NCBI GenBank assembly: GCA_039932315.1
Contig: JBDTQG010000006.1
Location: 10,160-74,159 of the forward strand
Length of the DNA: 64,000 nucleotides
From: Thermoanaerobaculia bacterium
GTDB taxonomy: Bacteria; Acidobacteriota; Thermoanaerobaculia; Multivoradales; JAGPDF01
Direction of reading: 5' to 3'
Shown: piece after piece, positions 14,598 to 31,312 of the stretch
How the letters are laid out: every line of letters begins with the position of its first letter
Position numbering within the stretch: the first letter of the stretch is position 1
Made by a program: the position numbers and the translations under genes
Notes under the pieces: model-generated
Told to the model about the DNA's origin: nothing
The model's input: only the letters and a program-made list of their open reading frames with translations
Database searches by the model: none

Positions 14598-14600
14598 GGG

Positions 14601-16331: not shown

Positions 16332-16346
16332 CATCGACCGGTCGGG

Positions 16347-16859
16347 CTACTCTTTCGGCGGCACCTTCGTCGCCTGCCACGTGACGGCCTGCCACTGACC
16401 GTGGCGGTAGAGAAACGTTCCGCTGTTGCGGTAGAACTGCACCGAACCGTCCGGGTTTTTCGCTACCAGACGGAAGGTGAGCGCCGCGGTGTCGCCGTAA
16501 GGACGAACGAGAATGTCCTCCGCGCTGTAGACCGCCTCCGGCTCGGGCGCTTTGCCGGTCTCTGCCTTGGGCGGCTCATCGAAGGACTTCAGAATGTCCG
16601 CCTTGCTCATCACGACGGCGCCCGAGCTCGTGTAGACGAGATCGTCGGCCCAGAAGCGCTCGTGCCCGGAGCGCTGGCCGTTCACCTGCGGCGTCAGGAA
16701 GTCATGGAGCAGCGCGGTGATCTCGGTCCGTGTCTTCTCGTCGGCGGCGGAGGATGGAGCCGCGGTGGCGCCCCGGAGAACCGTGGCGGATGAGACGAGC
16801 GCGACCAGAGCGACCAGAGCGAGCGCGAGGCGATGGGGGCGACGACGGGCGTTGAGCAT
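16347..16859 (-). CDS. Secreted NTF2-like (DUF4440/SnoaL-like) domain protein
   Basis: Signal peptide (LALALVALVALVSSATVLRGATA), then an NTF2-like domain. Convergent with the preceding NTF2-like gene. Confidence 0.55.
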   Translation of the reverse strand: MLNARRRPHRLALALVALVALVSSATVLRGATAAPSSAADEKTRTEITALLHDFLTPQVNGQRSGHERFWADDLVYTSSGAVVMSKADILKSFDEPPKAETGKAPEPEAVYSAEDILVRPYGDTAALTFRLVAKNPDGSVQFYRNSGTFLYRHGQWQAVTWQATKVPPKE

Positions 16860-16921
16860 GACGGTCTCCTCCCCGTCATGCTACTGGACGGACGGTCGCG
16901 GGGACTGCGATCGCACCGTCG

Positions 16922-17596
16922 TCAGAGACCGATCGCCGTCGACCAGTGGCAGGCACCGCCGCTCTCCGTCTCGAATCCGTCGACGTAGATCCGCGGCTGG
17001 ATGCCGAGATAAAGGCGGTCGATCTCGACGACGAACTGCGGTACGTCGACCGTCATCGGATTCGCATCAACCACGAACGCCACAGCCTGCGCCGAGGCGG
17101 CCAGCGTCACCGTTCCGCCGATCGAGTTCCAGGTTCCCGACGGATTGGCGAAGACGGGAGCCGAGAATCCAAGGTTTGTCGAGCAAGTCGGGTCGCTGAA
17201 CTGCTGGATCGCGAGCCGGGTCCAGACGTTGGCGATCGTGCGGTAGAGAGCGCCGATTTCGAGCGTCGGCGTCGCCACCGGATCGACCGGAATGCACTCG
17301 TGCGAGTACATGGCGAAGTACTGGCTCGAGGCCGACTGGGCGGACATCGCGAGCCCCGCGTTCGAGCCCGGACAGCCGCCCGAATCGAGAGTCAGCGACA
17401 AACTCCCGGGGCCCACCGACCAGTCACCCGGCACCGAGCCCGGATCGAACTCGCCGTTGGTGATCAGGTTCTGCGCGGAGGCGGCATTCAGACAACTGAG
17501 TACGGCGAGAACGCTCAGACCGACACTCTGGCAGCGGAACGGGCGAATCGAGCGGAACGAGCGGAACGAGCGGAACGAGCGGAACGACCGGAACAT
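16922..17596 (-). CDS. Secreted CBM4_9/galactose-binding-like domain protein ending in the GFExG-x4-W C-terminal tail
   Basis: Start at MFRSFRSFRSFRSFRSIRPFRCQSVGLSVLAVLSCLNAASAQ (signal peptide). The mature N-terminus NLITNGEFDPGSVPGDWS resembles a CBM4_9 first strand. The C-terminus is IYVDGFETESGGACHWSTAIGL*. Confidence 0.55.
   Translation of the reverse strand: MFRSFRSFRSFRSFRSIRPFRCQSVGLSVLAVLSCLNAASAQNLITNGEFDPGSVPGDWSVGPGSLSLTLDSGGCPGSNAGLAMSAQSASSQYFAMYSHECIPVDPVATPTLEIGALYRTIANVWTRLAIQQFSDPTCSTNLGFSAPVFANPSGTWNSIGGTVTLAASAQAVAFVVDANPMTVDVPQFVVEIDRLYLGIQPRIYVDGFETESGGACHWSTAIGL
17530..17596. repeat. 9-nt tandem repeat (GAGCGGAAC)x5 encoding (FRS)n at the N-terminus of a signal peptide
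   Basis: cgagcggaa cgagcggaa cgagcggaa cgagcggaa cgaccggaa immediately 3' of the ATG (minus strand). Confidence 0.8.
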
Positions 17597-17651
17597 TGGG
17601 AATCTCCTCTTCTCCGATCCGTGCAGAGAGCGGACGATTCGTATCAACCGG

Positions 17652-19274
17652 CTAGAGAACGGCAGCGCTCCAGGAGAAGGACGAACCGAGCTCGAAGCCA
17701 TCGGCGAAGAGCGCGCCGTAGAGAACGATCTCTCCTCCCGCCGCGATGCCGATGCCCTCGACCGTGCGGAAAGGTGTTCCCAGGACCAGATCCGCGCAAC
17801 CGTTGTCGTCGAAATCTCCGGCGGTGAGCGTCATCCCGACCTGCTGACCGACCTGGGCGGTGCCTGGAATTCCCGAGAAGCCGGGGGAGAGGAAGCGGAA
17901 ATAGTGCGCCAGGCCGCCGGGGCTGTCGCCGGTGAGAATCGTCACGCCGCCCCGTTCGCTCCCGGTCGCGCCGAGGTCCTCTCCCGGCTGGCCGATCGCG
18001 AGATCGTCCCGGCCGTCGCCATCGAAGTCCCCGGCGGCGAGCGCCGAACCGAAGCGGTCGCCCTCCTGCTGTGCCGCGGCGCCGAAAAGCATGCCCTGAT
18101 CGAAAGACTCCGCCGTGGAGAAATAGAGAACGGTGACCCGTCCGACCGAAAACCGCGGCTGGCCGGAAACGGTGAAGCCCACCATCGGCGCGCCGATCGC
18201 GAGATCGTCGGTGCCGTCGGCGTCGAAATCGCCGGCCGCGAGGGCCGCGCCGAAGTGGTCGCCGCTCGCCGCGCCGACGACGATCGGGCTGCGCGAGAAG
18301 TTGAGCCCGGAAGCCCCGCCGTAGATGCGCTGCACCGAGCCCGTGCTGCCGTTCTCGAACTGGACACCGATCGCGAGGTCATCCGCACCGTCGTTGTCGA
18401 AGTCACCGGCCGCGAGGACCTCACCGAAGTAGTTGGCGGAAGCGACGTTTCCCTCGACCCCCGGTTCCGCCCGCGACACGAGGTAGCCGCGAAAGGGCAG
18501 CAGTCCCGTCGCGGCGCCGTGGAAGACGGTGACCGTTCCGGCGTCGGTAAAGCCCTGGACCTCTTCGAACGGCGAACCCACCGCGAGGTCGTCGAACCCG
18601 TCGGCGTCGAAATCTCCGGCGGCGAGGCCGTTGCCGAACTGGTCGTTGTTCGCCGGCGTTCCCGGAATCCCGGCGACACCCTGTCGCAGGAACTCGGCGC
18701 CGACGAGCTCGATCTCTCCGGCGCGGCCGTAGAAGATCTCGACGCCGCCGGCCGTCGGAGCGCCGGTCTTGTTCTGCGGGATGCCGACCGCGAGGTCGTC
18801 GATCCCGTCGCCGTTGAAATCTCCCGCCGCGAGCGACCAGCCGAAGAGCTCGTTCGGCTCCGCGGGGTCGGGGCTGCCGGACGCGAGCTGCGTCAGGTAG
18901 GTGTCGGCAAGCCCGGGTTCGAGACGCCTTCCCGGCAGGCCGTAGCGGATGACGACGGCGCCCGTCCCCGGAATCGGATCGTTGACGAATCCGCTGTCGA
19001 GCGGCAGACCGGTCGCGAGGTCGTCGATGCCGTCGCCGTTGAAATCGCCGGCGACGACGGCGAGGCCGAACTGCTCGCCGGCCTCCGGCCCGTAGAAAAG
19101 AAGGTCCTCGCTCCCGAAGATCTGCGCCCCGACGCTCGACAGTCCGACGGAGGCGAGCTGCGCCGCCGCCGGACCGTTTCCCGCGGCGAAAACCAGCAGC
19201 AACGCGACGCCGTTGCAGATCGAAATCGGGATCGACGGAAACGAGCGCAGGCCGGGCAGATTTCGAGGTCGCAT
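17652..19274 (-). CDS. Secreted FG-GAP (integrin-alpha-like β-propeller) repeat protein
   Basis: Signal peptide, then at least 7 repeats of the AGDFNGDGxDDLAxG type (AGDFNGDGIDDLATG, AGDFDADGFDDLAVG, AGDFDNDGADDLAIG and others). The C-terminus is LYGALFADGFELGSSFSWSAAVL*. Confidence 0.75.
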   Translation of the reverse strand: MRPRNLPGLRSFPSIPISICNGVALLLVFAAGNGPAAAQLASVGLSSVGAQIFGSEDLLFYGPEAGEQFGLAVVAGDFNGDGIDDLATGLPLDSGFVNDPIPGTGAVVIRYGLPGRRLEPGLADTYLTQLASGSPDPAEPNELFGWSLAAGDFNGDGIDDLAVGIPQNKTGAPTAGGVEIFYGRAGEIELVGAEFLRQGVAGIPGTPANNDQFGNGLAAGDFDADGFDDLAVGSPFEEVQGFTDAGTVTVFHGAATGLLPFRGYLVSRAEPGVEGNVASANYFGEVLAAGDFDNDGADDLAIGVQFENGSTGSVQRIYGGASGLNFSRSPIVVGAASGDHFGAALAAGDFDADGTDDLAIGAPMVGFTVSGQPRFSVGRVTVLYFSTAESFDQGMLFGAAAQQEGDRFGSALAAGDFDGDGRDDLAIGQPGEDLGATGSERGGVTILTGDSPGGLAHYFRFLSPGFSGIPGTAQVGQQVGMTLTAGDFDDNGCADLVLGTPFRTVEGIGIAAGGEIVLYGALFADGFELGSSFSWSAAVL

Positions 19275-19345
19275 GCAGGACTACGCGGAAAGCGCAGCCG
19301 GCCGGGATCATCGGGCGGAGAAGCGGGCCGCTTGCGGGGAGAACT

Positions 19346-19945
19346 TCAGTCGCGGCGGCTGGCGACGAGATTCAGGTGGTGGGCGTTGTGATACTGGGTG
19401 AAAAAAAGCATCTCGCGCACGGTGAGCGGTCCGAGCAGGGGATGCGGCAGGCGGTAGCGATCGAGCGCGGGTTCCTGCCAGCGCGGGATGGCCGCCGTGA
19501 GCGCCGTCACCGCGGTGCGCCAGCGGCCGAGAACCTCGATCTGCCAGACGGCGGGATCGGCCGGAATCGGGCGTTTCGAGGGCGTGAAACGACCGGCCGA
19601 TGCCCCCTTCGCCAGTCGCGCGCGATAGAGCTCCCGGAGCTCCGGAAAGGCGCGCGACGGAGCGCTCGCACGACCGAACATCACGCGCAGCACGATCTTC
19701 GGCAGGCCGAGCGCCTTGACGACGGGAAAGGTCGACTTCGCGAGATGCCGCGTGTGATCGGCCGGCGACCACTTCTCGCCCTGGGCTCCCTGCGGTGCGA
19801 CGAACTCCGCACCGGGAATCGCCGCGAGGTAGCGCTCGGACTCCTCATGCAGCCGCACGAGCGCGGCCACGATCTCCGCACCGCTCGACGGCTCTCCGGT
19901 CGCGAACACCGGGGCTTCTCCGGCGACTTCGCCCCCTGGGGTCAT
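19346..19945 (-). CDS. DinB/YfiT-like (DinB_2) metal-dependent four-helix-bundle protein
   Basis: HTRHLAKST...FFTQYHNAHHLNLV, a His-triad pattern typical of the DinB_2 superfamily. Confidence 0.55.
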   Translation of the reverse strand: MTPGGEVAGEAPVFATGEPSSGAEIVAALVRLHEESERYLAAIPGAEFVAPQGAQGEKWSPADHTRHLAKSTFPVVKALGLPKIVLRVMFGRASAPSRAFPELRELYRARLAKGASAGRFTPSKRPIPADPAVWQIEVLGRWRTAVTALTAAIPRWQEPALDRYRLPHPLLGPLTVREMLFFTQYHNAHHLNLVASRRD

Positions 19946-20013
19946 GATCCTGTCCCCATCCGCGCTGAAACTCGGTTCGCGATGCTCACGAACTCATCCT
20001 ATCCGGGGGCCGG

Positions 20014-20454
20014 CTACGACTCCGCGGGACGCGCAGCCCTTGCCTCTTCGATCTGCTGGATCGCTTCGCGGACCCAGTCGATGAAGTCCGCGTCGCGGCT
20101 GCCGGAGAAGGCGGCTTCGGCGGCGAAACTCTGCAAAGAATCGAGCGCTGTCGGCGAGGCGACCGTGACGAAGCCGTCGAGGGCCGCCTTCCACACGTCG
20201 GGCCGGCGATCGCGCAGTCCGGCCTCGAGCATCGGCAGTGCGGTATCCAGACGATATTCGCGTGCAATCCGCATCAGCGTGCAGCGGCTATCTTCCGAGG
20301 TCTGCTGATCGAAGACCGCGCAGAGGAGCGGAACGACTCCGGGATCGAAACAGAGGAGCCCATGGGCCGCGGAGTCGAAGTCTCCGGCGCGCATCTCCGC
20401 GAGATAGAAGTCGACCGCCGCCTGCAGATCGGCAGGACTCTTTTCGCTCATCGC
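20014..20454 (-). CDS. Hypothetical protein (helical)
   Basis: Start set at MSEKSPADLQAAVDFYLAEM. The upstream part of the track ORF is Arg-rich noise. No recognisable family. Confidence 0.35.
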   Translation of the reverse strand, partial: AMSEKSPADLQAAVDFYLAEMRAGDFDSAAHGLLCFDPGVVPLLCAVFDQQTSEDSRCTLMRIAREYRLDTALPMLEAGLRDRRPDVWKAALDGFVTVASPTALDSLQSFAAEAAFSGSRDADFIDWVREAIQQIEEARAARPAES

Positions 20455-20476
20455 CGGTTCTGGATCGCCAGCGAGT

Positions 20477-20908
20477 TCATGGAAAGGTCTTCTTGACCAC
20501 TCTCTTCGCGCTCTTTTTCGCGGACTTCCTTCCCGAAGTGCGTTTCGCCGCGAGTGTCTTCTGCTCCGCCGCTCTCGCCTTCGCAAAACGCGCGATGAGC
20601 GCGTACGGCATCGGTTCGGAGAGCGGGAACTGGAGATTCCCCTTCGGCCCTCGGTACGGCGCGATCGCTTTCTGCAGCGCCGCATCGCCCTTCAGCGGCG
20701 GAAAGATCCCGATGTGCTTCTTGAACGCCGCAAAATAGATCACCGCCCCGTCGAGAAAGAGCGCCGGCATGCGATAGCTGATCCGCTCCTCGGCCTTCGG
20801 CAGCGCCTTCCGCAGCGTTGCGCGGAGCTTCCTCAAAACCGCCTGCGCCTCGGGAGCGGCGGCGGCGATGTAGGCATCGATGTCTTCCGGGATCAGACCG
20901 CTCCGCAT
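20477..20908 (-). CDS. DUF1801 (YdhG-like) domain protein with Lys-rich tail
   Basis: Domain-level resemblance to YdhG/DUF1801 (RISYRMPALFLDGAVIYFAAFKKHIGIFP), with a C-terminal KSAKKSAKRVVKKT basic tail. Confidence 0.45.
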   Translation of the reverse strand: MRSGLIPEDIDAYIAAAAPEAQAVLRKLRATLRKALPKAEERISYRMPALFLDGAVIYFAAFKKHIGIFPPLKGDAALQKAIAPYRGPKGNLQFPLSEPMPYALIARFAKARAAEQKTLAAKRTSGRKSAKKSAKRVVKKTFP

Positions 20909-21245
20909 GTTGCCTCCGTGGCGAGAATCGAACGCTGTTTACTGCACTAGCCCCATTGCTCGACGCTCCGACGATCGCTGCTGAGCCGTTCGCAAACCAC
21001 CGGAACGGCCATGCCTTCTTCGCCGGAAACATTTGGAGGCCGGACGAGAGATCCGCTGATGATATTCGGACTCTCCCGGAGCCAGAAACGGTCGCCGATG
21101 TCCTCGAGCGCTGGCGGGTCACCGGCCCCGGCTGGCAAACGCGGATGGCGGAGAGACTCAGCAAGGTTCGCTGAGGCACGCTCCTGACGTTGACCATTTC
21201 GGTGGCAGGAAAGGTCGCACCGCTCGAGTCTCCGTAGATGGGCTT

Positions 21246-21581
21246 CTAGTCGCCGACGAGAGTGGCGAGTTTGGCGAGCAGATCGGCGAGCACTTTGGCC
21301 GGGAGCTTACCGGCGAGCTCCGCCTTACGGGCGCGCCAGTCCAGGCTCTTGATCTGGTCGGCGAGCGCGACGCCTGCGACCGTCAAGCCGGCCGGCAGCG
21401 CGACTTCGAAAGGGTAGCCCTTGACCTGACTGGTGACCGGGCAAAGGAGCGCCAGGCCGACTCGGGCGTTGTAGGCACGCGGCGAGATGACGACCGCCGG
21501 GCGCCGCCCAGCCTGCTCATGGCCGGCCTGGGGGTCGAAGGAGATCCAGACGATGTCACCGCGATCCGGCGAGTAAGGCAC
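21246..21581 (-). CDS. mazF: Type II toxin MazF/PemK family endoribonuclease
   Basis: DRGDIVWISFDPQAGHEQAGRRPAVVISPRAYNARVGLALLCPVTSQVKGYPFEV...VALADQIKSLDWRARKA is collinear with E. coli MazF. Confidence 0.85.
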   Translation of the reverse strand: MPYSPDRGDIVWISFDPQAGHEQAGRRPAVVISPRAYNARVGLALLCPVTSQVKGYPFEVALPAGLTVAGVALADQIKSLDWRARKAELAGKLPAKVLADLLAKLATLVGD

Positions 21582-21587
21582 GTGCGG

Positions 21588-21830
21588 TTACCAGACCTCG
21601 CGGCCGACCGGCGCGCCGGACTCGACCTCATCGTGCCGATTGCGCTTCGTGACCCCGGAGAGCAGGCCCTCGAGCGTGAACGCCGGCGGCAGAATGGGCC
21701 GAATGACGAGGGTCCCCCGAACGAGGGTCAATTCCACCTCGCCCTGCTCCTCGAGCCCGACTTCGTCCGCGAACGGCTTCGGAATCCGCAATCCCAGACT
21801 GTTTCCCCACTTCTGGATCTTCGCATTCAT
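21588..21830 (-). CDS. mazE: Type II antitoxin MazE (SpoVT/AbrB swapped-hairpin)
   Basis: MNAKIQKWGNSLGLRIPKPFADEVGLEEQGEVELTLVRGTLVIRPI...EVW. There is a 6-nt gap to mazF. Confidence 0.75.
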   Translation of the reverse strand: MNAKIQKWGNSLGLRIPKPFADEVGLEEQGEVELTLVRGTLVIRPILPPAFTLEGLLSGVTKRNRHDEVESGAPVGREVW

Positions 21831-21939
21831 GCACGCCTCCGGTGTCTACATTGAATATACACCATTGGACCGAGAGACGACGGCCTCCTGCTTCGCCCGG
21901 GGTGGGCGCCGGAGAGAGACCGGCGGAACTGCGGAAAAG

Positions 21940-22488
21940 TCAGTCCAGATTCAATCCAGTGGCCTTCCCGAGAACCCGCAAGATGGCGTGGCGTGCAATG
22001 TTTTCTGGCGAGGAGGCGGTGTTCCAGGCTTTGCCCGATGACTCGCCTCGCATGAGGATCTTCCCGTCCGCGGCCACGACACGGAGGATCACGTGCACTT
22101 CGGCACCCTCTTTGCCGAACTGACTCTGTCCTGCGTGCGGAATGTCGATCAGCAGAACCGCCGAGACTCCGAGTGCCGTAAGTGCTTCGGCGCGGCGCGA
22201 GTCGTCGTATCGATCTAGACCCATGGCCATCAGCCGCTCCATTTTCACGGAGGAAACCACGGTGCGAAACGGCAATTTTCGCGTTGCTGCAAGCGTCGAC
22301 TCCACTTGCGACTCGACTTCAGAGGAGTTGATGACTTCGTTGCCTTGCGTCACGAAGACGGCGATGCGGTCTAGCCCATCGGCCCAGCCTTTCGGTGCTA
22401 CGACCGTGTCTTTGTAACCCGAAGCCAACACAGCGTTCGCAACGAAAGACAACAGAAACATGAATCGTGCCGCCCTAGTCCGGTTCAC
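21940..22488 (-). CDS. Hypothetical secreted/lipoprotein (lower-GC island gene)
   Basis: Signal peptide MNRTRAARFMFLLSFVANAVLASG, no recognisable domain, and local GC clearly below the flanking sequence. Confidence 0.4.
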   Translation of the reverse strand: MNRTRAARFMFLLSFVANAVLASGYKDTVVAPKGWADGLDRIAVFVTQGNEVINSSEVESQVESTLAATRKLPFRTVVSSVKMERLMAMGLDRYDDSRRAEALTALGVSAVLLIDIPHAGQSQFGKEGAEVHVILRVVAADGKILMRGESSGKAWNTASSPENIARHAILRVLGKATGLNLD

Positions 22489-22564
22489 TGTGTTCCATCT
22501 CCTTTCCCGCTCCGGTTGATCGGAAGGCAGACCCGCGCCACCGAGACGACGATCAACCTTGAAT

Positions 22565-23407
22565 CTACCTTCGTCGAGTCGCAGCTAGCACGAGCCGTCT
22601 CATGGTCGCGAGGGTGCGGCACGAGCCATCGCGATGCATCATGCGGTGACAGTTCGAACAGACAATGGCCAGATCGCCAAGCAAGGTGCGTCGAGAAGCG
22701 GAACTGGCCGCGAGTGGAGCGACGTGATGCACCTCACAGTAGCCTTCGCCGAGGGCACCGTAGGCGCTCTCAAAGTCAAACTCGCAAACTTCACATCGGA
22801 GCGGCTCTCCATCCTTCGTTACTTGCTCGATCTTTCGTCGACGAAGGATGCGATCGCGCTCGCGCGCATAGTGGATCATGAGGCGCCGACGTCCCTCGCT
22901 CGCGCCGTCTGGAAGGTCGTCGACATCACTAGCGACAACTTCCCGTTTCGGGCCTCTGCGAAGCGATGGCCACAACGATCCCGTCGTCGGATTCCTCCCG
23001 ACGACGAGCTGAAAGAGTGCCTCGGCTTCCTCGATCGAGAGACGGAACAACGTACCCGCAGCGCCGGACTTGAGGAATACGGAACCTTTGAGGGCGACGT
23101 GCTTTCTTGCTGCTCCGATGTGAACCGGATGTTCCAGATAGGAAGTCAGATAGATGACGTGGAAGCGCGCGACAACGCCTCGCCTCACTGGTCTGGTTGG
23201 AACCGAGACAATTTCGCCCAGTCCAACGACCTGGGTCTTGGGCGCTGCTTCCCAGAAAAAGACCCTATCGCCGGCTTTCCATCCACTGGGCGCAGCACGC
23301 GTCTGCCAGACATCCGCTGCCCCCGGAGCGAGCCAAGCCGCAAGGTCGTTCCTAGCCGGCCTGCCTTTCACCACCCAGTACCGACTTGTCACAGGTTCAC
23401 CGACCAT
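22565..23407 (-). CDS. EVE(PUA-like)-HNH fusion endonuclease (modification-dependent, type IV-like restriction enzyme architecture)
   Basis: The N-terminus SRYWVVKGRP...DRVFFWEAAPKTQVVGLGEIVS is an EVE/PUA-like modified-base reader fold. The C-terminal HNH motif is CEVCEFDF...YCEVHHVAPLA...CSNCHRMMH. Confidence 0.7.
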   Translation of the reverse strand: MVGEPVTSRYWVVKGRPARNDLAAWLAPGAADVWQTRAAPSGWKAGDRVFFWEAAPKTQVVGLGEIVSVPTRPVRRGVVARFHVIYLTSYLEHPVHIGAARKHVALKGSVFLKSGAAGTLFRLSIEEAEALFQLVVGRNPTTGSLWPSLRRGPKREVVASDVDDLPDGASEGRRRLMIHYARERDRILRRRKIEQVTKDGEPLRCEVCEFDFESAYGALGEGYCEVHHVAPLAASSASRRTLLGDLAIVCSNCHRMMHRDGSCRTLATMRRLVLAATRRR

Positions 23408-23905
23408 CTAGTCGCGAACAGCGTCTACGATGAGGTCCCATCTCGAACGAAACGGCTCCAGACTCCAGCCTGTACCCTCCCTTAGAGGGGGCAGGTGCAC
23501 CGCACGAAACTTGTTCTCCTTGCTCCTAGCCTGACCGTTCATGCCAGGAGTTGCTTCCCAGATCCTATGGTTCTCAGAAACTGCTTTCGAGAGTTCGAGC
23601 GAAGGAATCACGAAGAACTCGAAGGCCTTCGTGGATTCAGGCGCTGGAATTCCAGCAAGGACCCAGAAGAAGGACTTGCCGAAGTCCTTTTCCGCCTTCA
23701 GCCCGACGGCGCATGTCCCCCCACCTGGAATGAATGCTTTCACCTGGACGTGGACGAATCGAGTTGCAACAGAATTGCTTACGAGAATGTCCGTGTTCGG
23801 GCAGTTTCCCATCGTCACGACCGCGACCAACTCACGCCGACAGAGCTCTCCTGCAACAAAGAACTGGGCCGCGTCCGCTCGATACCCCTTGTCGCTACGC
23901 GTCAT
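23408..23905 (-). CDS. Hypothetical small protein with PD-(D/E)XK-like motif, co-operonic with the RM enzyme and EVE-HNH
   Basis: VVTMGNCPNTDILV...FVHVQVKA (hydrophobic strand-D ... hydrophobic-Q-x-K). Its start overlaps the RM gene stop by 11 nt and its stop abuts the EVE-HNH start. Confidence 0.4.
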   Translation of the reverse strand: MTRSDKGYRADAAQFFVAGELCRRELVAVVTMGNCPNTDILVSNSVATRFVHVQVKAFIPGGGTCAVGLKAEKDFGKSFFWVLAGIPAPESTKAFEFFVIPSLELSKAVSENHRIWEATPGMNGQARSKENKFRAVHLPPLREGTGWSLEPFRSRWDLIVDAVRD

Positions 23906-26819
23906 CTCTGATTTGTCCCGCCCTCTCGAGATTCAGGGCTAGCAACCGCTCGAGGATCTGCTCGTCGGTGAGATCGCTCGGCCAGCCATACGCCGTGAAC
24001 ACCGCCTCGTCGAGTTTCTTGTGCGCGAGGTCGAGCCAGGCGGGGCGTTCGTTGTAGAGGTTGGTGAGTGTCCGCTTGGCGAGCTTCTTCGCCGCCTCGG
24101 CATCGCGCGCCACGATCCGCGGCCAGCGCACCGTTCCCATTCCTCGCGCGTCGGCCTCGTGCACGAATCTCTTCCAGGGCCCGTCCACCGAACCCGGAAA
24201 CTCCAACACCTCCTCCTTCGTCCACTCCGGCGGATTCAGCCAGGCTCGCCGCAGGTCGTCCAGCTGTTTCGCCGCAGCGGTGATGGCGCCCGCTACGTGG
24301 TTTGCTGGTAAAGGAAAAGGAAAAGTCTCGAAGCATGTAGTGGGTGTATACCGAAATCCGCTTTCCTTCTCTCGTAACTGCGTCCCCTGCGCCAACGCCC
24401 AAACTTCATGGAGTCTCGAGTGTAGGACCCCGAATTCATAGTCCTCCGAGAATGCGAAAGCGACGATGGCATCGGTGGCCAGATTCTCCGGCGTGGACCA
24501 GACGAAAAGACGATGCTTAGAGACGCGCGGGGTTACGATGAAGCGATCACGACTTCGAAGAGCGGCCCTCATTGCCTTCTGCGGGTCACCTAGAATCCAC
24601 CATCTTGACGCCCTTGTCGCCCTTCGATTTTTCTCGCGAACTGGCTTCACAACTCGCTCCAGAAATGCGAAGGAAGCTCCATACAGGGCAGCTTCTGAAA
24701 CGCCCACCTCTGGCGGCATGTCGATTATCCAAAGCGTTCCTGGTCGCCGGGTGAGGGAGAGACCATTGAGCCACGGTCTCACGACATCCGAAGTTGGGCG
24801 CCCATGAGGGTTGGGCGTGTGCAGCTCCGCGACGGCCTCTTCCTCATTCAAATCAAAGGGCCCGTGAATCGCCGCTCCAATGAAGGAAAGGGTTGAACTC
24901 GGTACTAGCGTCAGCGCTGTCGAAGTAGCAGCTCCTGCGGAGAGATTCGCGTTGATCCGAACAACTGCCTTCCCATCAACAGTCTTGTCCTTATACGAAC
25001 CATCGTCGAAGCCCACCATGGCAACATGAACGTTAGCGCCATCAAGAATCCACTCTCGGTCGCTCCAGGCCCAGAAGATGTCGCCGGAAGCCATGATGCG
25101 CTCGAGAACGGCGCGATTGGCCCCTCCCCGAATTCCTTGGGTGGCGAGAAGGCCGGCACGCTGTGCCTGGTTTTCTTCTATTGAGCTTCGGGCTTTCTCG
25201 AACCAGTAGCAGCAAAGATCAGATTGACCAGGAATACGCCCGCCGTAGAGCTTCCGAACGGCTTCGACGTACTCATCTCCGAGCTCGCCGCGCATCATCT
25301 TGTCGCCGAGAAACGGCGGATTGCCGACGATGAAGTCGACTTTGGGCCAGGTGGGTTCTTGGGGGTTCTCGGGGTCGGTGAGGTCGAGGATGGCGTCTTT
25401 GTTTTCGATGTTGCTCATCGCCTGGAGGATCGGTTCTTTCCAGGTGGTGGTGCCGTGCTGGCGGAGCCACTGGAGGTAGCCGATCCAGACGGTCATCTGG
25501 GCGAGCTCGTGGGCGTACTGGTTGATCTCGATGCCGTAGAGCTGCCAAGGACCGACGCCGACGCGGAGAGGGGCCTGGAAACCGCGATCGAGCATGAAGT
25601 CGTAGACCTCGCTCTCGAGATCTTTCAACTTGCGCAGCGTCACGTAGAGGAAGTTCCCCGATCCGCAAGCTGGGTCGAGGACCTTGATCTTCTCCAGACG
25701 ATCCAGGAAACGCAGCGCGAAGAGTTCGGCCTCGGCCTTTGCCTTCCTGTGCTCGTTCGCCGAGAGCGGTTTCCCTGGTGCCGCAGCGTCATCCTTCCGT
25801 CCCGTTGCGAGCAATCGATCGACGAGCGCGCCAGTTTCCGCCCACTCCCGGCGGAGCGGCGCCATGACGACCGGCTCGACCAGCGTCTCGATGTCCTCCC
25901 GGCTGGTGTAGTGCGCCCCCAGCTGTGCGCGCTTCGCCGGATCCAGGCCGCGTTCGAAGAGCGTGCCGAAGATCGACGGATCGATCGCGCTCCAGTCGAG
26001 CCGTGCGGCCGAGGCGAGAAGTGCCAACTCCTCTTCCGAAAGCGCCAGCGCGGAGGCGTCGTCGAAGAGACTGCCGTTGATGTGCGGAATCCGGTCGACA
26101 CCGAAGAAACCGCCGTCGGCCATCTTGCGGAAGAGATCGCCGACCAGTGTTTCGAAGAGCTCCGGCTTACCGCGCGTCGCTTCGAACAGCTTGGAGGCGA
26201 CCTCATTCGGCAGCAGGCCGATATCTTCGGCAAAGAGCGCGAACAGAATCCGGTCGAGGAAGCGCGCGACGGCGCGCGGCTCGAAGCCGCGGTTGCGCAG
26301 GCGGAGGGCCAGCTCACCGAGCGCCTTGGCGGCATCGGCCGTGACGACCGGATTGATCTTCCCCGGCCGGAAGCGCTCGGGCTCGAAGAAGACCCAACGC
26401 AAAAGCTCGAGCTTCTCGGGCTGGACGAGCTCTTCGAGCGCGATCGGGTAGACGACGTGCTTGGCGTTCTGGAAGCTGGTGTGGATCTCGAGCCGGGCCG
26501 TGTCGCAGGTCACCAGCAGAGGCGGGTTCTCGAGGTCCGCCCGGTATTCGTCGAGCTGCTTCCAGGCCGCGTCGAGGTCCTTGTGCTTGCCCTTGTATTC
26601 GAGAGCGAAGAAGCCGCGCTTCCAGACATCGGCGAAACCGTCGCTGCCGCCGCGCTTCTCAGCGCCCTTCTCGAAGCAAAACGATTCGCCGGTCGGATCG
26701 AGCGCCGCGGGCTTGCCGTGCCCGACCAGCTCGCAGAGGTCGAGAAAATGCTCCTGCGCCGCCGAGCGCTCCTTGAGCGTCGCGGCCTTCCACTTGCGGA
26801 CGAAGTCGCGGGGGGTCAT
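23895..26819 (-). CDS. Single-chain type IIL/IIG restriction-modification enzyme (MmeI-family-like: N-terminal PD-(D/E)XK nuclease, N6-adenine methyltransferase, TRD)
   Basis: The N-terminal nuclease motif is FADVWKRGFFALEYKGKHKDL (D-x9-E-x-K). The SAM-MTase motifs are VLDPACGSGNFL (motif I) and IVGNPPFLG (motif IV, NPPF). A ~400-aa C-terminal region is a candidate target-recognition domain. Length 974 aa. Confidence 0.8.
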   Translation of the reverse strand: MTPRDFVRKWKAATLKERSAAQEHFLDLCELVGHGKPAALDPTGESFCFEKGAEKRGGSDGFADVWKRGFFALEYKGKHKDLDAAWKQLDEYRADLENPPLLVTCDTARLEIHTSFQNAKHVVYPIALEELVQPEKLELLRWVFFEPERFRPGKINPVVTADAAKALGELALRLRNRGFEPRAVARFLDRILFALFAEDIGLLPNEVASKLFEATRGKPELFETLVGDLFRKMADGGFFGVDRIPHINGSLFDDASALALSEEELALLASAARLDWSAIDPSIFGTLFERGLDPAKRAQLGAHYTSREDIETLVEPVVMAPLRREWAETGALVDRLLATGRKDDAAAPGKPLSANEHRKAKAEAELFALRFLDRLEKIKVLDPACGSGNFLYVTLRKLKDLESEVYDFMLDRGFQAPLRVGVGPWQLYGIEINQYAHELAQMTVWIGYLQWLRQHGTTTWKEPILQAMSNIENKDAILDLTDPENPQEPTWPKVDFIVGNPPFLGDKMMRGELGDEYVEAVRKLYGGRIPGQSDLCCYWFEKARSSIEENQAQRAGLLATQGIRGGANRAVLERIMASGDIFWAWSDREWILDGANVHVAMVGFDDGSYKDKTVDGKAVVRINANLSAGAATSTALTLVPSSTLSFIGAAIHGPFDLNEEEAVAELHTPNPHGRPTSDVVRPWLNGLSLTRRPGTLWIIDMPPEVGVSEAALYGASFAFLERVVKPVREKNRRATRASRWWILGDPQKAMRAALRSRDRFIVTPRVSKHRLFVWSTPENLATDAIVAFAFSEDYEFGVLHSRLHEVWALAQGTQLREKESGFRYTPTTCFETFPFPLPANHVAGAITAAAKQLDDLRRAWLNPPEWTKEEVLEFPGSVDGPWKRFVHEADARGMGTVRWPRIVARDAEAAKKLAKRTLTNLYNERPAWLDLAHKKLDEAVFTAYGWPSDLTDEQILERLLALNLERAGQIRDDA

Positions 26820-26840
26820 GTGGCGCGAGCGCTGCCGACG

Positions 26841-27107
26841 TCAGCCGGCGCGTTTCACAGGACGGGAATGACTTCGCGCACCCGCGAGCAATCCGGCGAC
26901 GCTCAAGTCTTCAACGATCGCGGGCCAGTGCATGCCGTCGTCGTCGCCGAGCAGCTCCCAGTTCTGTCGCTCGTTCGCATCCGCAGCCAGGAGGCGAGGA
27001 AACCAGACCAGGGGCGCCGAGATTCGGCGGCCGTCGGCAAGCTCGACGGATATCTCGTTGTCCGAGATCTCAACGCCACGCGCCAGTGGGCGCCCATGTA
27101 CACGCAT
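26841..27107 (-). CDS. DUF2442-domain protein (copy A)
   Basis: MRVHGRPLARGVEISDNEISVELADGRRISAPLVWFPRLLAADANERQNWELLGDDDGMHWPAIVEDLSVAGLL. 79% identical to copy B at 29703..29978. Confidence 0.6.
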   Translation of the reverse strand: MRVHGRPLARGVEISDNEISVELADGRRISAPLVWFPRLLAADANERQNWELLGDDDGMHWPAIVEDLSVAGLLAGARSHSRPVKRAG

Positions 27108-27113
27108 TCGTAC

Positions 27114-28427
27114 CTAAGGTTCGGTTGCCGACCATTCGAGGAAGTTGCCGGTTTCGAACGCTGACCAGAAGATGGTTGCACTTCGATCGTAGAATGTACC
27201 CGCGGGGTCAGCCCTGATCTCAACTCTAATTCGCGGAGAGCTGGATGGAGGCGCCATCGTATAGTGGAGTACAGCTCCTGGTTGCAAGAAGGACTCTACG
27301 ATCGCTGCCTTGCAAAAACCCACCGGCGGCGGTGCTGGACCGGACGGCACAAAGGCGAGCTCGACTTCCGCGTTGGCGCAGTCGAGCTCCAGGCTTAGGT
27401 GAACGCTGTAGTCGTCGGCGGTCGCGGCTATTCGATCCGCGCCGGTCATAGCAAATCGAATCATGTTGACATCTTCGGCCACAAGGCCCGAAAGTCGCGT
27501 TCCGGAACCAATCTTCGAGTACATAAGAGATTGCGTCCCGGGGTGCTGAAGCGAAGACGCGACGAATTCATTCGCGGAGGCCGCGTAGTTGCTGCCTGTC
27601 GGAAGTACAGTTAGAGATCGGGAAAAAGAAGCCTGTTGAATTGTGGTGCTATCGATCAGGACTGGATCGTTGTCAGAGCGTCGAAACCAAGAAACCGATT
27701 GCACCTGCATGGGTTGAATCGGGCAGTTTGGGCCAGGGCAAGGGGGGCAACATGGAGTGCACGCGGTAGAGCCCGAACCTTGAAGGGCTGCGAGTCGCGG
27801 CAATTCCAGTTCCTGGAATGCCGGAATGAACGGGCATGCGTTGTTGTGAATATCTGTGCGGTCGCCGGGTGCCGAGCCCTGCGAAACATTTGTAGCATTG
27901 ACAGATGCCGCAAGACTAGTCAGCTGACCGCAGCCGCTTGGCCCGTCAAGATCGCAGACGCCCGTTCTCCAGTACTTCGCGTCGTTGTAGAGACCTCCGT
28001 CCTCCGACACGTCAAGCTCAACAAGATTTGAATGCCCAAGGCCCATCGCGCAATGCCCGAGCTCGTGAAGTACCACCCATTGTAGGCTGGCTTTCCCGGA
28101 CGGAGCGGGTTCATTGGAGGTCCAACAATCGAAGCAGTTTCCGTACCTTGCCTTCAGTTCGTTCCAAGTTTCGACCGCCGACAAAAGTGGCAAGAGTAGC
28201 CCCTCGCTTCCAGCTTCGACACAAATGCCAATTTCAATCGCCCCACCAGCCTGGAGATAACCCACAGGATGCACGATTGCAAACGGCGGAACGTAGTTTG
28301 GATCGGTCGAGGGGAGTCGACGGGTGAAGCGGTCGATCTCGAAATAGGTGCCGGCAGAAAGATCCGAAGTCATGGCCGCAGCGAGCGCAACCCCTAGCAG
28401 CACCAGTCGAACTCGCGTCAGTTTCAC
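27114..28427 (-). CDS. Secreted metzincin-like zinc metalloprotease ending in the GFExG-x4-W tail
   Basis: Signal peptide MKLTRVRLVLLGVALAAAMT, then the zinc-binding motif VVLHELGHCAMGLGHS (HExxHxxGxxH) and a Cys/Pro-rich linker. The C-terminus is FWSAFETGNFLEWSATEP*. GC is lower than the genome background. Confidence 0.6.
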   Translation of the reverse strand: MKLTRVRLVLLGVALAAAMTSDLSAGTYFEIDRFTRRLPSTDPNYVPPFAIVHPVGYLQAGGAIEIGICVEAGSEGLLLPLLSAVETWNELKARYGNCFDCWTSNEPAPSGKASLQWVVLHELGHCAMGLGHSNLVELDVSEDGGLYNDAKYWRTGVCDLDGPSGCGQLTSLAASVNATNVSQGSAPGDRTDIHNNACPFIPAFQELELPRLAALQGSGSTACTPCCPPCPGPNCPIQPMQVQSVSWFRRSDNDPVLIDSTTIQQASFSRSLTVLPTGSNYAASANEFVASSLQHPGTQSLMYSKIGSGTRLSGLVAEDVNMIRFAMTGADRIAATADDYSVHLSLELDCANAEVELAFVPSGPAPPPVGFCKAAIVESFLQPGAVLHYTMAPPSSSPRIRVEIRADPAGTFYDRSATIFWSAFETGNFLEWSATEP

Positions 28428-29041
28428 GTACCCTCCTCAGCCGATCGGAGCCGCATCAACCAGCCCTTCAGCTTCTCTCCAAACCTGGCGATCCCTTCGA
28501 GGGCGCGTATATCGGGACGCTTCGTCCGGTAGCTGCTGAAGGGCTCGAGTGCGAAGGAAACGGTAGGCGACGCGACTCGCACTCCGCGTACCTCGACGGA
28601 CTTAAAGTTAACCGTCACGACGCACCCCGTCCCCGGCTCAGAAACGCCCGCATGAAATCTTCGACCGTCCGGAAGCACGCCATAGCTGGGCTCGAGCTCC
28701 TGATGTATAGCGGAAAGGTCTGCCCCTACGACTTCGTAGTCGACCAAGTCTGCCAGCGCCTCCCGCAGCTCCTTGCGATTTATCATAATTCCAGGGGATG
28801 ACGCGGCTCGCTGTCCCCCGGAACGAGTAGTGCGCCTCTGCAACCAGCCATCGCCAAAGAGCTCGAACTGCTCGAGGCCCGGGGCGAAAATGTCCTTAAT
28901 CTGAATCGTCACTACGACAACGTCAGGGTTCGTTGAAGCAGAGAAGTCTCTTGCAGGGGGTTCGGAAGCGCTCTGAGCCCCTAGAGTCAGGCCAAGAATC
29001 CCCACACAGCACATTGCAATTGCGAGTGGTGTCTGTTTCAT
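28424..29041 (-). CDS. Hypothetical secreted protein (island gene)
   Basis: Signal peptide MKQTPLAIAMCCVGILGLTLGAQSA, no recognisable domain, lower GC. Confidence 0.4.
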   Translation of the reverse strand: MKQTPLAIAMCCVGILGLTLGAQSASEPPARDFSASTNPDVVVVTIQIKDIFAPGLEQFELFGDGWLQRRTTRSGGQRAASSPGIMINRKELREALADLVDYEVVGADLSAIHQELEPSYGVLPDGRRFHAGVSEPGTGCVVTVNFKSVEVRGVRVASPTVSFALEPFSSYRTKRPDIRALEGIARFGEKLKGWLMRLRSAEEGT

Positions 29042-29065
29042 GGAGCGCTCCTTTTCGTGCGTCGT

Positions 29066-29662
29066 CTATTGTACGCCTGCGCTCACCGGACCCGGCAGAA
29101 GCAAACGAGCGACCTGACTTGGCTCGAGCGCGCGGTTTCGCAGGCGTTGCGCGAGGTCGCCGAGCGCTTTCGCGGCTTCCGCGGTGACGACCGGATTGAT
29201 TCTTCCGGGGCGGAACTTTTCCGGTTCGAAGAAGATCGCCCGCACGAGCTCGAGCTTGTCGGGCTGCGTGAGCTCCTCGAGGGCGATCGGGTAGACGACG
29301 TGTTTCGTGTTCTGAAAGCTGGTGTGAACCTCGAGCCTCGCGGTGTCACACGTGACGAGAAGCGGTGGGTTCTCGAGATCGGCGCGATACTCGTCGAGCT
29401 GTTTCCAGGCGCTATCGAGGTCTTTGTGCTTGCCCTTGTATTCCCAGGCGAAGAAGCCGCGCTTCCAGACGTCGGCGAAGCCGTCGCTGCCACCGCGCTT
29501 TTCAGCGCCTTTTTCGAAGCAGAACGACTCGCCCGTCGGATCAAGTGCCGCGGGCTTGCCGTGCCCGACGAGCTCACAGAGGTCGAGAAAGTGCTCCTGC
29601 GCCGCCGAGCGCTCCTTGAGCGTCGCGGCTTTCCACTTCTTCACGAAGTCGCGAGGAGTCAC
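29066..29662 (-). pseudogene. Truncated, diverged second copy of the RM-enzyme N-terminal nuclease domain (remnant of a related type IIL cassette)
   Basis: The first ~180 aa are ~90% identical to the 23895..26819 product, including an intact FADVWKRGFFAWEYKGKHKDL. The reading frame then diverges and stops, with no MTase or TRD following. Confidence 0.65.
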
Positions 29663-29702
29663 GATCGGAGCGCCACGGATCGGATGCGTCTGCGGGCGCC
29701 GG

Positions 29703-29978
29703 TCAGCCGGCGCGTTTCAAGGGTCGCGAGTGGCTTCGCGCACCCGCGAGCAGGCCGGCGACGCTCAGGTCCTCGTCAATGGAGGGCCAGTGGATCCCCT
29801 CACCGTCCCCCAGGAGCTCCCAGTTCTGACGTTCCGCCGCGTCTGCAGCGAGGAGGCGCGGAAACCAGACCAGCGGCGCCGAAATGCGTCGGCCATCCGC
29901 CAACTCCACGGCGAGCTCGTCGTCAGTGATTTCGACCCGCCGCGCCAAGGGCCGCAACTCAAGCACTGAAGAAATCAT
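29703..29978 (-). CDS. DUF2442-domain protein (copy B)
   Basis: Start set at MISSVLELRPLARRVEITDDELAVELADGRRISAPLVWFPRLLAADAAERQNWELLGDGEGIHW by alignment with copy A. Confidence 0.6.
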   Translation of the reverse strand: MISSVLELRPLARRVEITDDELAVELADGRRISAPLVWFPRLLAADAAERQNWELLGDGEGIHWPSIDEDLSVAGLLAGARSHSRPLKRAG

Positions 29979-30186
29979 TCCAAGCCTCCTTGAATCTCGC
30001 CCCATTCTCTTCGACCAGTCGCTGGATCTCGAACAGTTCGTGTGGGCGAAAGCCTGTGGATCCTGCCAGCCCGACCGGTTCGAGCCAAAACTTGGCCAGC
30101 ATTCGCTCTCGGCGCACATGAATATGGAGCGGCTCGAAACCCTCGTTCCCATAGAAAAAGAACCGATAGGGCCCTATCCGCGTCAC
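29959..30186 (-). CDS. DUF4160-domain protein (partner of DUF2442; putative TA-like pair)
   Basis: MTRIGPYRFFFYGNEGFEPLHIHVRRERMLAKFWLEPV. Overlaps the downstream DUF2442 gene start. Confidence 0.6.
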   Translation of the reverse strand: MTRIGPYRFFFYGNEGFEPLHIHVRRERMLAKFWLEPVGLAGSTGFRPHELFEIQRLVEENGARFKEAWNDFFSA

Positions 30187-30262
30187 CGTAGGAGACTCAG
30201 CTTCAGAATAGCAGGGAGAAGCCGGGCGTAAACCACGCTCCTGTCGGGTCTAGAATGCCCCC

Positions 30263-31312
30263 ATGCCCTCACCGCCCTCCGACCGTGTTCTCTCGGGTGA
30301 GCTCGAGATGGCGGAGGCTTCGGTCGAGCACTCGCTCCGACCGAAGCAGCTGACGGAGTACGTCGGGCAGGACCGGATCGTCGAGAATCTGAAGGTCTTC
30401 ATCCGCGCCGCGCGGGAGCGCGGGGAGCCGCTCGATCACGTGCTGCTCTTCGGCCCGCCGGGGCTGGGGAAGACGACTCTCGCGCACATCCTGGCGAAGG
30501 AGATGGACGCGCCGCTCCGCACGACCGCCGGGCCGGTGCTCGAGCGCGCGGGCGACCTCGCGGCGATCCTCACCAATCTGCAGGAGGGCGACGTTCTCTT
30601 CGTCGACGAGATCCATCGTCTCGGGCCGTCCGTCGAGGAGATCCTCTATCCCGCGCTCGAAGACTTCAAGCTCGACCTCGTCGTCGGGCAGGGGCCGGCG
30701 GCGCGCATCGTCAAGATCGATCTGCCGCGTTTCACGCTCGTCGGCGCGACGACGCGCGCCGGGCTCATCTCGTCGCCGCTCCGTGCGCGATTTGGCATCG
30801 TCCATCGGCTCGACTTCTATCCCCCGGCGCAGCTCGCGCGGATCGTGAAGCGTTCGGCCGAGCTTCTCGGCGTGGCGTCGGATGCGGCAGGTCTCGATGA
30901 GCTCGCGCGCCGGAGCCGCGGCACCCCGCGCATCGCGAACCGGCTGCTTCGCCGGGTGCGCGACTTCGCGCAGGTCGACGCCCATCTGCCGGGGATCGAT
31001 CTCGCGATGGCGAAAAAGGCGCTGGCGCTCCTCGAGGTCGACGACTTCGGCTTCGACGAGCTCGACCGGCGATTCCTCTCCGTGCTGATCGAAGTCTACG
31101 GCGGCGGCCCGGCCGGAATCCAGGCGATCGCCGCCGCGATCGGCGAAGACCGCGGCACGCTCGAGGATCTCTACGAGCCGTACCTCCTGCAGGAGGGCTT
31201 CCTGCAGCGCACGCCGCGCGGACGGGTCGCCACCCGGCGCGCCTACGACCATCTCGGCTACCCCCCACCCGCCTCGACGCCGGGCAGCGGCACGCTGTTC
31301 GATCCCTCCTAG
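30263..31312 (+). CDS. ruvB: Holliday junction branch-migration ATPase RuvB
   Basis: [23 protein letters not shown]...[18 protein letters not shown] (Walker A)...LFVDEIHRL (Walker B)...[16 protein letters not shown], then a winged-helix C-terminus. Confidence 0.95.

Follow-up and report, generated by a model that had tools for sequence, protein, structure and literature searches.

The window analyzed here is a 64,000-nucleotide stretch of contig JBDTQG010000006.1 from a Thermoanaerobaculia bacterium (assembly GCA_039932315.1), in which the core genes ruvA (14001..14597, + strand; Pfam RuvA_N/HHH_5/RuvA_C) and ruvB (30263..31312, + strand; Pfam RuvB_N/AAA_lid_4/RuvB_C) are separated by a gap of 15,665 bp. 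The right-hand ∼9 kb of this gap is a patch of defense and toxin-antitoxin (TA) genes, and an earlier reading of the sequence (the original prediction) had described it as a lower-GC defense island that splits two normally adjacent genes and moves by an unknown mechanism. Eighty related loci were collected via RuvB; the comparison loci, designated by L numbers, are metagenome-assembled genome (MAG) or metagenome contigs, some of them short. The ruvA-ruvB gap was less than ∼620 bp in 58 of the 68 loci that have ruvA upstream on the same strand, and the order PPIase-(Cys/Met enzyme)-ruvA-ruvB (PPIase, peptidylprolyl isomerase) was kept among the related loci. Because of this adjacency and conserved order, we conclude that adjacent ruvA and ruvB are ancestral and that the 15,665-bp gap is derived, in agreement with what had been predicted.

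About 18 of the related loci carry inserts or rearrangements at this junction (10 with inserts of 0.75 to 7.1 kb holding different cargo and ∼8 more that are rearranged), and nearly all of them belong to the subclade whose RuvB proteins are at least 70% identical. The cargo includes Xre regulators, a TPR protein, and Phd/YoeB in L006, FG-GAP/ASPIC and TPR proteins in L032, a GDSL lipase in L020, and a patatin in L033. Small TA modules tend to adjoin ruvB, namely dhiTA in the window, a DUF5615/PIN-like gene in L001, and YefM/YoeB in L006. Differing gene sets lie between one and the same core-gene pair in these relatives, and the ruvA|ruvB junction is a variable-region hotspot that is general in kind, specific to the clade, and filled mostly with non-defense cargo; a dedicated defense hotspot was considered and rejected, since relatives hold lipase, patatin, FG-GAP/TPR, and regulator genes there. 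The left 6.6 kb of the gap in the window (14.6-21.2 kb, native GC; 0.662 for 14598-21245) is also variable among relatives. Its accessory segment (14598..21096; by Pfam an AraC/GyrI-like regulator, two DUF4440 genes, a 259-aa unknown, an FG-GAP protein, DinB_2, a HEAT-like gene, and DUF1801) is mostly missing in L040, which shares with it the DinB gene and a weak HEAT-like match only. As the original prediction had noted, mobility genes are not in evidence: no tRNA or tmRNA was found in the 64-kb window, and the open reading frames (ORFs) scanned in the ruvA-ruvB gap gave no Pfam match to an integrase, recombinase, or transposase. No flanking att-like direct repeats were found, the sole long direct repeat being internal. 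A search of phage DNA gave no match, a plasmid search gave weak matches to the MmeI gene only, and no unrelated genome, plasmid, or phage was found to contain the block as one unit. A scan for sigma-70 promoters and terminators did no better than shuffled sequence.

An intact 974-aa restriction-modification (RM) enzyme of the MmeI family, type IIL/IIG, is encoded at 23895..26819 (− strand; Pfam MmeI_N/hel/Mtase/TRD/C), with a layout of nuclease, helical spacer, N6-adenine methyltransferase, target-recognition domain (TRD), and C-terminal domain. The protein matches the PADLOC model REase_MTase_IIG (8.6e-273), MmeI itself (5HR4; phmmer E 1.3e-47 over aa 5-951), and the Pfam models MmeI_Mtase (1.3e-31), Eco57I, N6_Mtase, and MmeI_TRD (1.8e-8); the MmeI_C match is weak (19.9 bits, under the 27-bit cut-off). 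Its nuclease motif D64-x9-E74-x-K76 corresponds to D70/E80/K82 of MmeI, the HMMER alignment to 5HR4 setting GFADVWKRGFFALEYK on GFVDLFWPGILLIEMK (for the family-defining residues see PMC2731913, and for the properties of the family PMC2731913 and PMC4833311). The methyltransferase motifs DPACGSGNF (at 382) and NPPF (at 500) lie on the same polypeptide, and no such domain was detected in the other ORFs scanned between 14.6 and 35.4 kb that would mark a separate methyltransferase gene. The window enzyme thus resembles MmeI (5HR4; PMC2731913, PMC4833311) in being a single chain with a PD-ExK nuclease, helical spacer, gamma-class N6-adenine methyltransferase, TRD, and C-terminal domain. By analogy with the family, it would methylate one adenine, on one strand, of an asymmetric site and, given two sites, would cut unmethylated incoming DNA ∼20 bp away (PMC2731913).

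Alignment with the alleles of related loci revealed where this gene varies. Residues 1-475 are 94-100% identical to L088, L087, and L001, and residues 826-950 are 90-96% identical to L088 and 78-94% identical to L087. Over the TRD segment (aa ∼576-800; 24420..25094, − strand) identity to L088/L087 is 26-60%, with a nonsynonymous divergence (dN) of 0.51 and saturated synonymous divergence (dS). The GC content at third codon positions (GC3) falls from 0.88 to 0.58 exactly across this hypervariable, low-GC segment, and a low-GC3 TRD is present in all three alleles. On the strength of these alignments we read the GC dip at 24.3-25.3 kb as a swapped recognition domain within a resident gene, that is, an allele swap, and the swap presumably changed the specificity. 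A protein search with the TRD alone returned best matches of 50-64% identity, mostly to partial proteins, and no donor was identified among them. Exact-protein look-ups gave no entry for the window MmeI or for an NCBI copy of the 165-aa protein. The TRD is what sets the window enzyme apart from the known MmeI enzymes, being only ∼50-64% identical to its best matches and 26-60% identical to the sister-genome alleles, and because it is so diverged from anything found, the recognition sequence is probably new; the allele is a candidate new specificity in a family used for enzyme engineering. TRD exchange in the methyltransferases of Helicobacter pylori (PMC3983042) likewise combines a conserved core with a recognition segment swapped between close relatives, whereas the swap described here affects a single-chain MmeI enzyme of the Acidobacteriota and the swapped segment has lower GC3 in all three alleles.

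Two further putative nucleases lie next to the MmeI gene. A putative type IV modification-dependent restriction enzyme of the EVE-HNH type is encoded at 22565..23407 (− strand; Pfam EVE and HNH; PADLOC mREase_IV). The Pfam match to EVE is marginal (E 7.2e-5; 23.2 bits versus a cut-off of 23.0), and that to HNH has an E value of 4.1e-6. An AlphaFold2 (AF2) model of the protein (pLDDT 84.6) matched EVE domains in Foldseek (2gbs, 2eve, and 1zce at E values of 1e-7 to 1e-5 and target-normalised TM-scores of 0.63-0.67) and aligned over its full length to VcaM4I (6yex); the HNH of McrA (6GHC) aligned with the nuclease part. The HNH and zinc-ligand residues C205xxC208, H227-H228, C250, N252, C253, H254, and H258 were invariant in 28 homologs, as were W11, W34, and W52 of the EVE part; the hydrophobic flipped-base pocket of VcaM4I consists of P24, W82, and Y130. 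The window protein is thus organized like VcaM4I (6YEX; PMC7897488, PMC6765204), with an N-terminal EVE/PUA sensor, a linker, and a C-terminal zinc-finger HNH (280 versus 303 aa), but it has no sequence similarity to VcaM4I detectable by phmmer. Such an enzyme would cut DNA with modified cytosines or similar bases and so cover phages that escape the MmeI enzyme (PMC7897488).

A stand-alone 165-aa protein with an I-Ssp6803I/Hjc-like PD-(D/E)xK nuclease fold, belonging to an unannotated family, is encoded at 23408..23905 (− strand) and would be the third nuclease of the patch. It has the PD-(D/E)xK core fold together with the catalytic acidic residues and lysine (signature E-D-QxK), and the family has no Pfam, NCBIfam, or PADLOC model. 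It shares its fold with I-Ssp6803I and archaeal Hjc (2OST, 2WCW; PMC3384342) at a structural-alignment identity of only 17%, and a profile search of the Protein Data Bank (PDB) sequences gave no significant match to I-Ssp6803I. Unlike that enzyme, it is not encoded inside an intron, as an Rfam search of 13-36 kb found no family at all, and thus no intron or riboswitch near the small nuclease; its homologs occupy varied chromosomal, RM, and conjugative contexts. The family comprises 866 close homologs and 1788 clusters at 50% identity, mostly single-domain proteins of 150-180 aa, and close homologs at 54-76% identity occur in Chloroflexi, Elusimicrobiota, and Desulfobacteraceae MAGs. The gene was free-standing in 9 of 9 contexts (L081-L086, L089, L090, and L171), all in MAGs of several phyla, with surroundings that included a type III RM system together with a resolvase, a conjugative region, a nearby C5 methylase, and housekeeping genes on both sides. 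A phage-borne family was rejected, there being one match in 2.9 million viral contigs. We tentatively suggest that these proteins may be nucleases of a new single-gene type, anti-phage or type IV-like, or else the products of a selfish homing-type gene that spreads by insertion beside genes such as MmeI (here into its 3′ end), although we hold this to be a possibility rather than an expectation. The family itself is widespread; its recognition is a by-product of this analysis, and it would be cheap to test.

Next to the EVE-HNH gene lies a 182-aa ORF (21940..22488, − strand) with an N-terminal signal-like hydrophobic segment and no Pfam, NCBIfam, or PADLOC match; a homolog 84% identical adjoins EVE-HNH in L087, and a fragment is present in L088. 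The gene order given previously is accordingly corrected to mazF, mazE, the 182-aa secreted ORF, EVE-HNH, and the PD-ExK ORF, the last two of which are both present as had been predicted (Pfam, PADLOC, and structure models).

The close packing of these genes raises the possibility of a single three-gene defense system in which MmeI, the 165-aa protein, and EVE-HNH cooperate, with the small nuclease or EVE-HNH as an accessory effector of the type IIL enzyme. The MmeI and 165-aa genes overlap by 11 nt and the stop codon of the latter abuts the EVE-HNH start, all on the same strand; an independent 1.7-kb contig has the order (upstream gene)/165-aa/EVE-HNH with the same 11-nt overlap at 71-76% identity; and MmeI and EVE-HNH are linked on four contigs. 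Several results nevertheless make such a system unlikely. L087 and L088 lack the 165-aa gene and have TA modules or other ORFs between MmeI and EVE-HNH, the 165-aa family is solitary in unrelated contexts, and MmeI and VcaM4I-type enzymes each work alone (PMC2731913, PMC7897488). In addition, 80 more distant MmeI loci (49-69% identity) contained no homologs of DUF2442, DUF4160, EVE-HNH, the 165-aa protein, or MazEF by tblastn. Among 49 ORFs immediately upstream of these MmeI genes there was no DUF2442/DUF4160 and one weak EVE match, and 56 downstream ORFs were varied (Mrr in three cases, SIR2 in two, a TIR protein, one HNH, an AbiEii-like ATPase, Fic, and others). DUF2442/DUF4160 and EVE-HNH were rejected as general partners of MmeI on the basis of their absence from the 80 loci. 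Because those loci lack the partners and the 165-aa gene is solitary elsewhere, we interpret the patch as a juxtaposition of independent modules; RM and type IV enzymes commonly occur together without making up an obligate system.

Four TA modules or remnants were recognized. At the left end, mazF (21246..21581, − strand; PemK/MazF, PF02452 E 1.1e-28, native-like GC3 of 0.84) and mazE (21588..21830, − strand; PF04014 E 5.4e-11) have the arrangement of a MazEF module, with the antitoxin gene first, a 6-bp spacer, and both genes on one strand. An imperfect 23-bp palindrome, GGTGTCTACATTGAATATACACC (21841..21863, no strand assigned), recognized by comparison with its own reverse complement, lies 11 bp upstream of the mazE start and is a probable MazE/MazEF autoregulatory operator. 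To the left of mazF, positions 21097..21174 (+ strand) encode the last ∼24 codons of a BrnA antitoxin (Pfam BrnA_antitoxin profile positions 43-66 of 68); this 3′ stub is 82% identical in nucleotides to the 3′ end of the intact brnA in L087 and extends the patch ∼150 bp leftward. At the right end, a DUF4160 toxin gene (DhiT-like; 29959..30186, − strand; PF13711 E 3.1e-15), located 76 bp from the divergent ruvB start, is followed on the same strand by its cognate DhiA-like DUF2442 antitoxin gene (∼29703..29978, − strand; PF10387 E 1.3e-19; likely start 29978). The literature lists DUF4160/DUF2442 as the TA pair dhiTA from Dickeya dadantii (PMC8198452; PMC12065111), and the window pair likewise has the same two Pfam families, DUF4160 first, and small, adjacent or overlapping genes (PMC8198452). 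A second, orphan DUF2442 gene without a cognate DUF4160 (26841..27107, − strand; PF10387 E 1.2e-15; 85.5% identical in amino acids to the other copy) lies 21 bp upstream of MmeI. In contrast to the Dickeya DhiTA, then, three diverged cassettes of this clade have the antitoxin gene at a distance of 18-40 bp upstream of MmeI, and one of the antitoxin copies is an orphan. The tight dhiA-MmeI spacing is a clade-specific association that may reflect co-transcription, and a secondary reading is that dhiTA-MmeI could be a clade-specific composite in which the restriction enzyme is expressed under the control of the TA promoter and antitoxin. As addiction modules, mazEF, the DhiTA pair, the orphan DUF2442, and the BrnA system left as a stub probably stabilize the patch or act in abortive infection.

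The two DUF2442 genes belong to a direct repeat comprising DUF2442 and the first ∼180 MmeI codons. Copy A (26278..27093) and copy B (29121..29955) are ∼80% identical over 835 aligned bp and bracket a cassette for two secreted proteins. The first (437 aa; 27114..28427, − strand) has a zinc-binding-like HELGHxxxGxGH motif, with the HE..H at residue 121, and is a putative metalloprotease; its match to Matrixin (E 0.0024) is below the cut-off, and no homolog was found in 170 related loci. The second (205 aa; 28424..29041, − strand) has a signal-like N-terminus and no family match in Pfam, NCBIfam, or PADLOC. The two would be unrelated passenger cargo. The MmeI part of copy B belongs to a stub of a second MmeI allele (29066..29662, − strand; 198 aa, nuclease domain only; PF20464 MmeI_N E 1.2e-15) that consists of aa 1-∼188 followed by 10 unrelated codons and a stop. 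This stub B keeps the D-x9-ExK motif, is 88.8% identical in amino acids to copy A, and has a dN/dS of 0.08. Its dS to copy A, L001, and L088 is 0.94-1.07, versus 0.34-0.51 among those three, which makes it their outgroup. We take stub B to be what truncation left of a more divergent allele that was once functional, and not a decayed pseudogene.

The gene content thus largely matches the original prediction: mazE/mazF and two DUF2442 genes, one with DUF4160, were identified by Pfam, the single-chain nuclease-methyltransferase-TRD enzyme is an MmeI-family type IIL protein (PADLOC, Pfam, and the 5HR4 alignment), and the defense/addiction character together with the atypical composition was borne out by Pfam, PADLOC, and GC analysis. 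Two of its descriptions needed adjustment. A second RM copy is present, but it is truncated and not degraded, given the intact 198-aa ORF and low dN/dS; and both proteins described as secreted proteases appear to be secreted, but only the 437-aa protein has a protease signature, and a weak one.

Base composition was evaluated by sliding-window GC and tetranucleotide analysis, using as baseline the 500-bp windows outside 21246-30186 (n = 217), which had a mean GC of 0.673 (SD 0.026) with 1 of 217 below 0.61. The mean for 21.5-30.25 kb was 0.606, with 20 of 34 windows below 0.61 (Mann-Whitney p ∼1e-8), so the predicted drop relative to the flanks is real. The dip is uneven across this region. 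The GC values were 0.591 for 21831-25500, 0.653 for 25501-27110, 0.575 for 27111-29060 (the secreted-protein cassette, which is the lowest-GC cargo), and 0.629 for 29061-30262, whereas mazEF (21246-21830) was native-like at 0.672. The tetranucleotide correlation reached the minimum of the whole window at 27-30 kb (r 0.756 versus ∼0.81-0.92 in most other windows). The low GC resides in three separate patches, namely the block of the 182-aa, EVE-HNH, and PD-ExK genes, the MmeI TRD, and the 2-kb secreted-protein cassette; GC3 is close to native (0.74-0.9) in the MmeI backbone and in the DUF2442/DUF4160 genes. Of two AT-rich strings quoted in the original prediction, the first was exact (21841-21863) and the second (23763-23785) contained one wrong letter.

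The two closest species (RuvB 92%), represented by L001 and L040, have MmeI or a fragment of it at the same ruvB junction. In L001, MmeI (92% identical in amino acids), DUF2442, and DUF4160 stand next to ruvB, and in L040 an internal MmeI fragment (aa ∼106-453) abuts ruvB. The dS between the window and L001 is 0.51 for the MmeI backbone and 0.46 for ruvB; because these values match, we conclude that the MmeI backbone has been inherited with the chromosome since the species split. L087 and L088, found via EVE-HNH homologs, contain MmeI, EVE-HNH, and the 182-aa gene in a different order and without the 165-aa gene, and their TA modules differ (ParE/Unstab_antitox and BrnTA). According to the original prediction, relatives with the same genes at this locus and native-like codon usage would count against a foreign island. 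Such relatives were found in part, in the MmeI of L001 and L040 at the same junction and the MmeI plus EVE-HNH of L087 and L088, along with the near-native GC3 of the backbone, and the idea of a single foreign island is not supported in view of the dS equal to that of ruvB, the native-like GC3, the three separate GC patches, and the relatives' MmeI genes beside ruvB.

These relatives also carry scars. Positions 1956-2104 of L001 hold a diverged pseudo-copy of ruvB that spans the leader and ∼25 initial codons, contains an in-frame stop, and is fused head-to-head to an 81-nt copy of the MmeI 5′ end. The 81-nt stub is a recent copy of L001's own gene, to which it is 95% identical. The DUF5615/PIN-like ORF of L001 (2101-2445) lies between the pseudo-copy and the true ruvB. 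L040 has lost the MmeI 5′ end and dhiTA through a deletion that stops 12 bp short of the ruvB leader. MmeI 3′ fragments were seen in L088 (4315-4539) and L087 (3846-3924 and 4575-4782), all ending at the equivalent of aa 955 and bordering TA modules. This suggests a preferred breakpoint near the MmeI 3′ end, the part of the gene that in the window also overlaps the 165-aa gene.

Taken together, the data make it probable that, within one Thermoanaerobaculia clade, the ruvA|ruvB junction acts as a hotspot of gene turnover and that its right-hand 9 kb in the window is a mosaic of independent modules assembled by homology-anchored plus illegitimate recombination. We favor this type of recombination because stubs of MmeI (5′ and 3′), ruvB (5′), and BrnA occur without an integrase, a tRNA, or flanking repeats. 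One homologous crossover combined with an illegitimate join at the other end is generally called homology-facilitated illegitimate recombination. A dhiTA-MmeI backbone would have been at the junction since before the split of the nearest sampled species. DNA from relatives may then have been imported repeatedly, with one crossover in a conserved gene (the MmeI core or ruvB) and the other end of the imported DNA joining illegitimately to leave truncated old genes. One such event would have put the secreted-protein cassette together with a new dhiA-MmeI allele into an older MmeI allele at codon ∼190, and another would have exchanged the TRD. For the mobilization mechanism, which the original prediction had left unknown, the lack of mobility genes stands, and the recombination scars now provide a reasonable answer.

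Four points weigh against this interpretation. No donor was found for the cargo cassette or the TRD, and the events are reconstructed from scars only. The comparison loci all come from MAG or metagenome contigs, and those of L087 and L088 end before ruvB, so that the identity of their locus is assumed. The tight MmeI/165-aa/EVE-HNH packing recurs on a second contig and could mean functional coupling. Finally, the repeats would be arranged in a similar way if an old in situ tandem duplication had decayed. This last scenario, an ancient tandem duplication of a dhiT-dhiA-MmeI cassette with subsequent divergence and decay and no repeated imports, fits the structure topologically, and the purifying selection seen in stub B would be expected if it had long functioned as a second paralogue. 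We consider it improbable, as stub B is the outgroup to copy A, L001, and L088 (dS ∼1 versus 0.34-0.51), yet neither L001 nor L040 has a B-type copy; the stub in L001 is a recent copy of its own gene and such events recur independently; and the DNA between the repeats is the most compositionally foreign in the window.

A discrete, recently acquired mobile island, such as an integrative element or the remnant of an integrative and conjugative element (ICE) that later lost its mobility genes, would explain the lower GC and deviant tetranucleotide usage, the typical cargo of RM, type IV, and TA genes, and the fact that more distant relatives, L002 and L003 among them, lack the patch. Set against this are the MmeI backbone, as diverged from L001 as ruvB is, the near-native GC3 of the backbone and TA genes and the confinement of low GC to three separate patches, the lack of flanking direct repeats, a tRNA, or an integrase, the close relatives with differently rearranged versions (L001 and L040 at the same junction), and the lack of a similar block in plasmids or phages, so that we regard recent arrival as one island as very unlikely. 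A MAG contig made chimeric by assembly across the repeated MmeI/DUF2442 sequence is scarcely credible even with a metagenome-assembled source and a ∼830-bp repeat inside the region, since the repeats are only ∼80% identical and would not confuse an assembler, and independent assemblies again show the dhiT-ruvB junction (in L001, as a stub), MmeI close to ruvB (in L040), and the order MmeI/165-aa/EVE-HNH.

The turnover hotspot that we favor has counterparts among the integrase-free or core defense hotspots (PMC5635113, PMC10250203), which likewise hold variable genes between two core genes, lack mobile-element genes, and differ in cargo among relatives. Hotspots without mobile elements evolve via recombination at the core genes on either side of them and tend to adjoin recombination and repair genes (PMC5635113); the window patch is likewise flanked by such genes, and ruvB is its probable recombination anchor. 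Unlike those hotspots, the one described here splits ruvA from ruvB, is confined to one uncultured Acidobacteriota clade, and has unusually well preserved gene stubs. In its content the patch is an ordinary example of defense and TA genes of known kinds in an integrase-free, core-gene-flanked hotspot. Its interest lies in being a clean natural record of how such a hotspot evolves in an uncultured phylum, with stubs that point to a type IIL enzyme whose alleles were replaced repeatedly, to an exchanged recognition domain, and to cargo hitch-hiking with homologous flanks. It also cautions that a low-GC island can consist of old resident genes plus small recent patches.

Several minor features were noted around the two core genes. 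A 33-bp hairpin-forming unit, GAGCGGAACCGTCTCATCGTTCAGCTCCGCTCA, is present in 3.2 tandem copies at 14600-14705, starting 3 bp past the ruvA stop, overlapping the 3′ end of the AraC-like gene, and unique in the window; it was considered as a possible recombination site, but none of the relatives fetched has it. A 9-bp tandem repeat, AGCGGAACG, occurs 6.9 times at 17533-17594 within the ORF of the 259-aa unknown, which precedes the FG-GAP gene, and encodes a short peptide repeat. A second clade-specific insertion lies directly downstream of ruvB (31320-35428, native GC of 0.685) and holds an 828-aa ORF, with a weak CFI-box-CTERM match only, and a 532-aa Trans_reg_C/TPR regulator; in L001, L002, L003, and L015, ruvB is followed directly by the homolog of window position 35429 onward. 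Lastly, an unrelated metagenome contig (L128, 8980-14492; RuvB 54% identical) has an MmeI homolog convergent to ruvB-ruvA at a distance of ∼1 kb, an arrangement that may be coincidental or may indicate a wider tendency of such genes to settle at the ruv locus.

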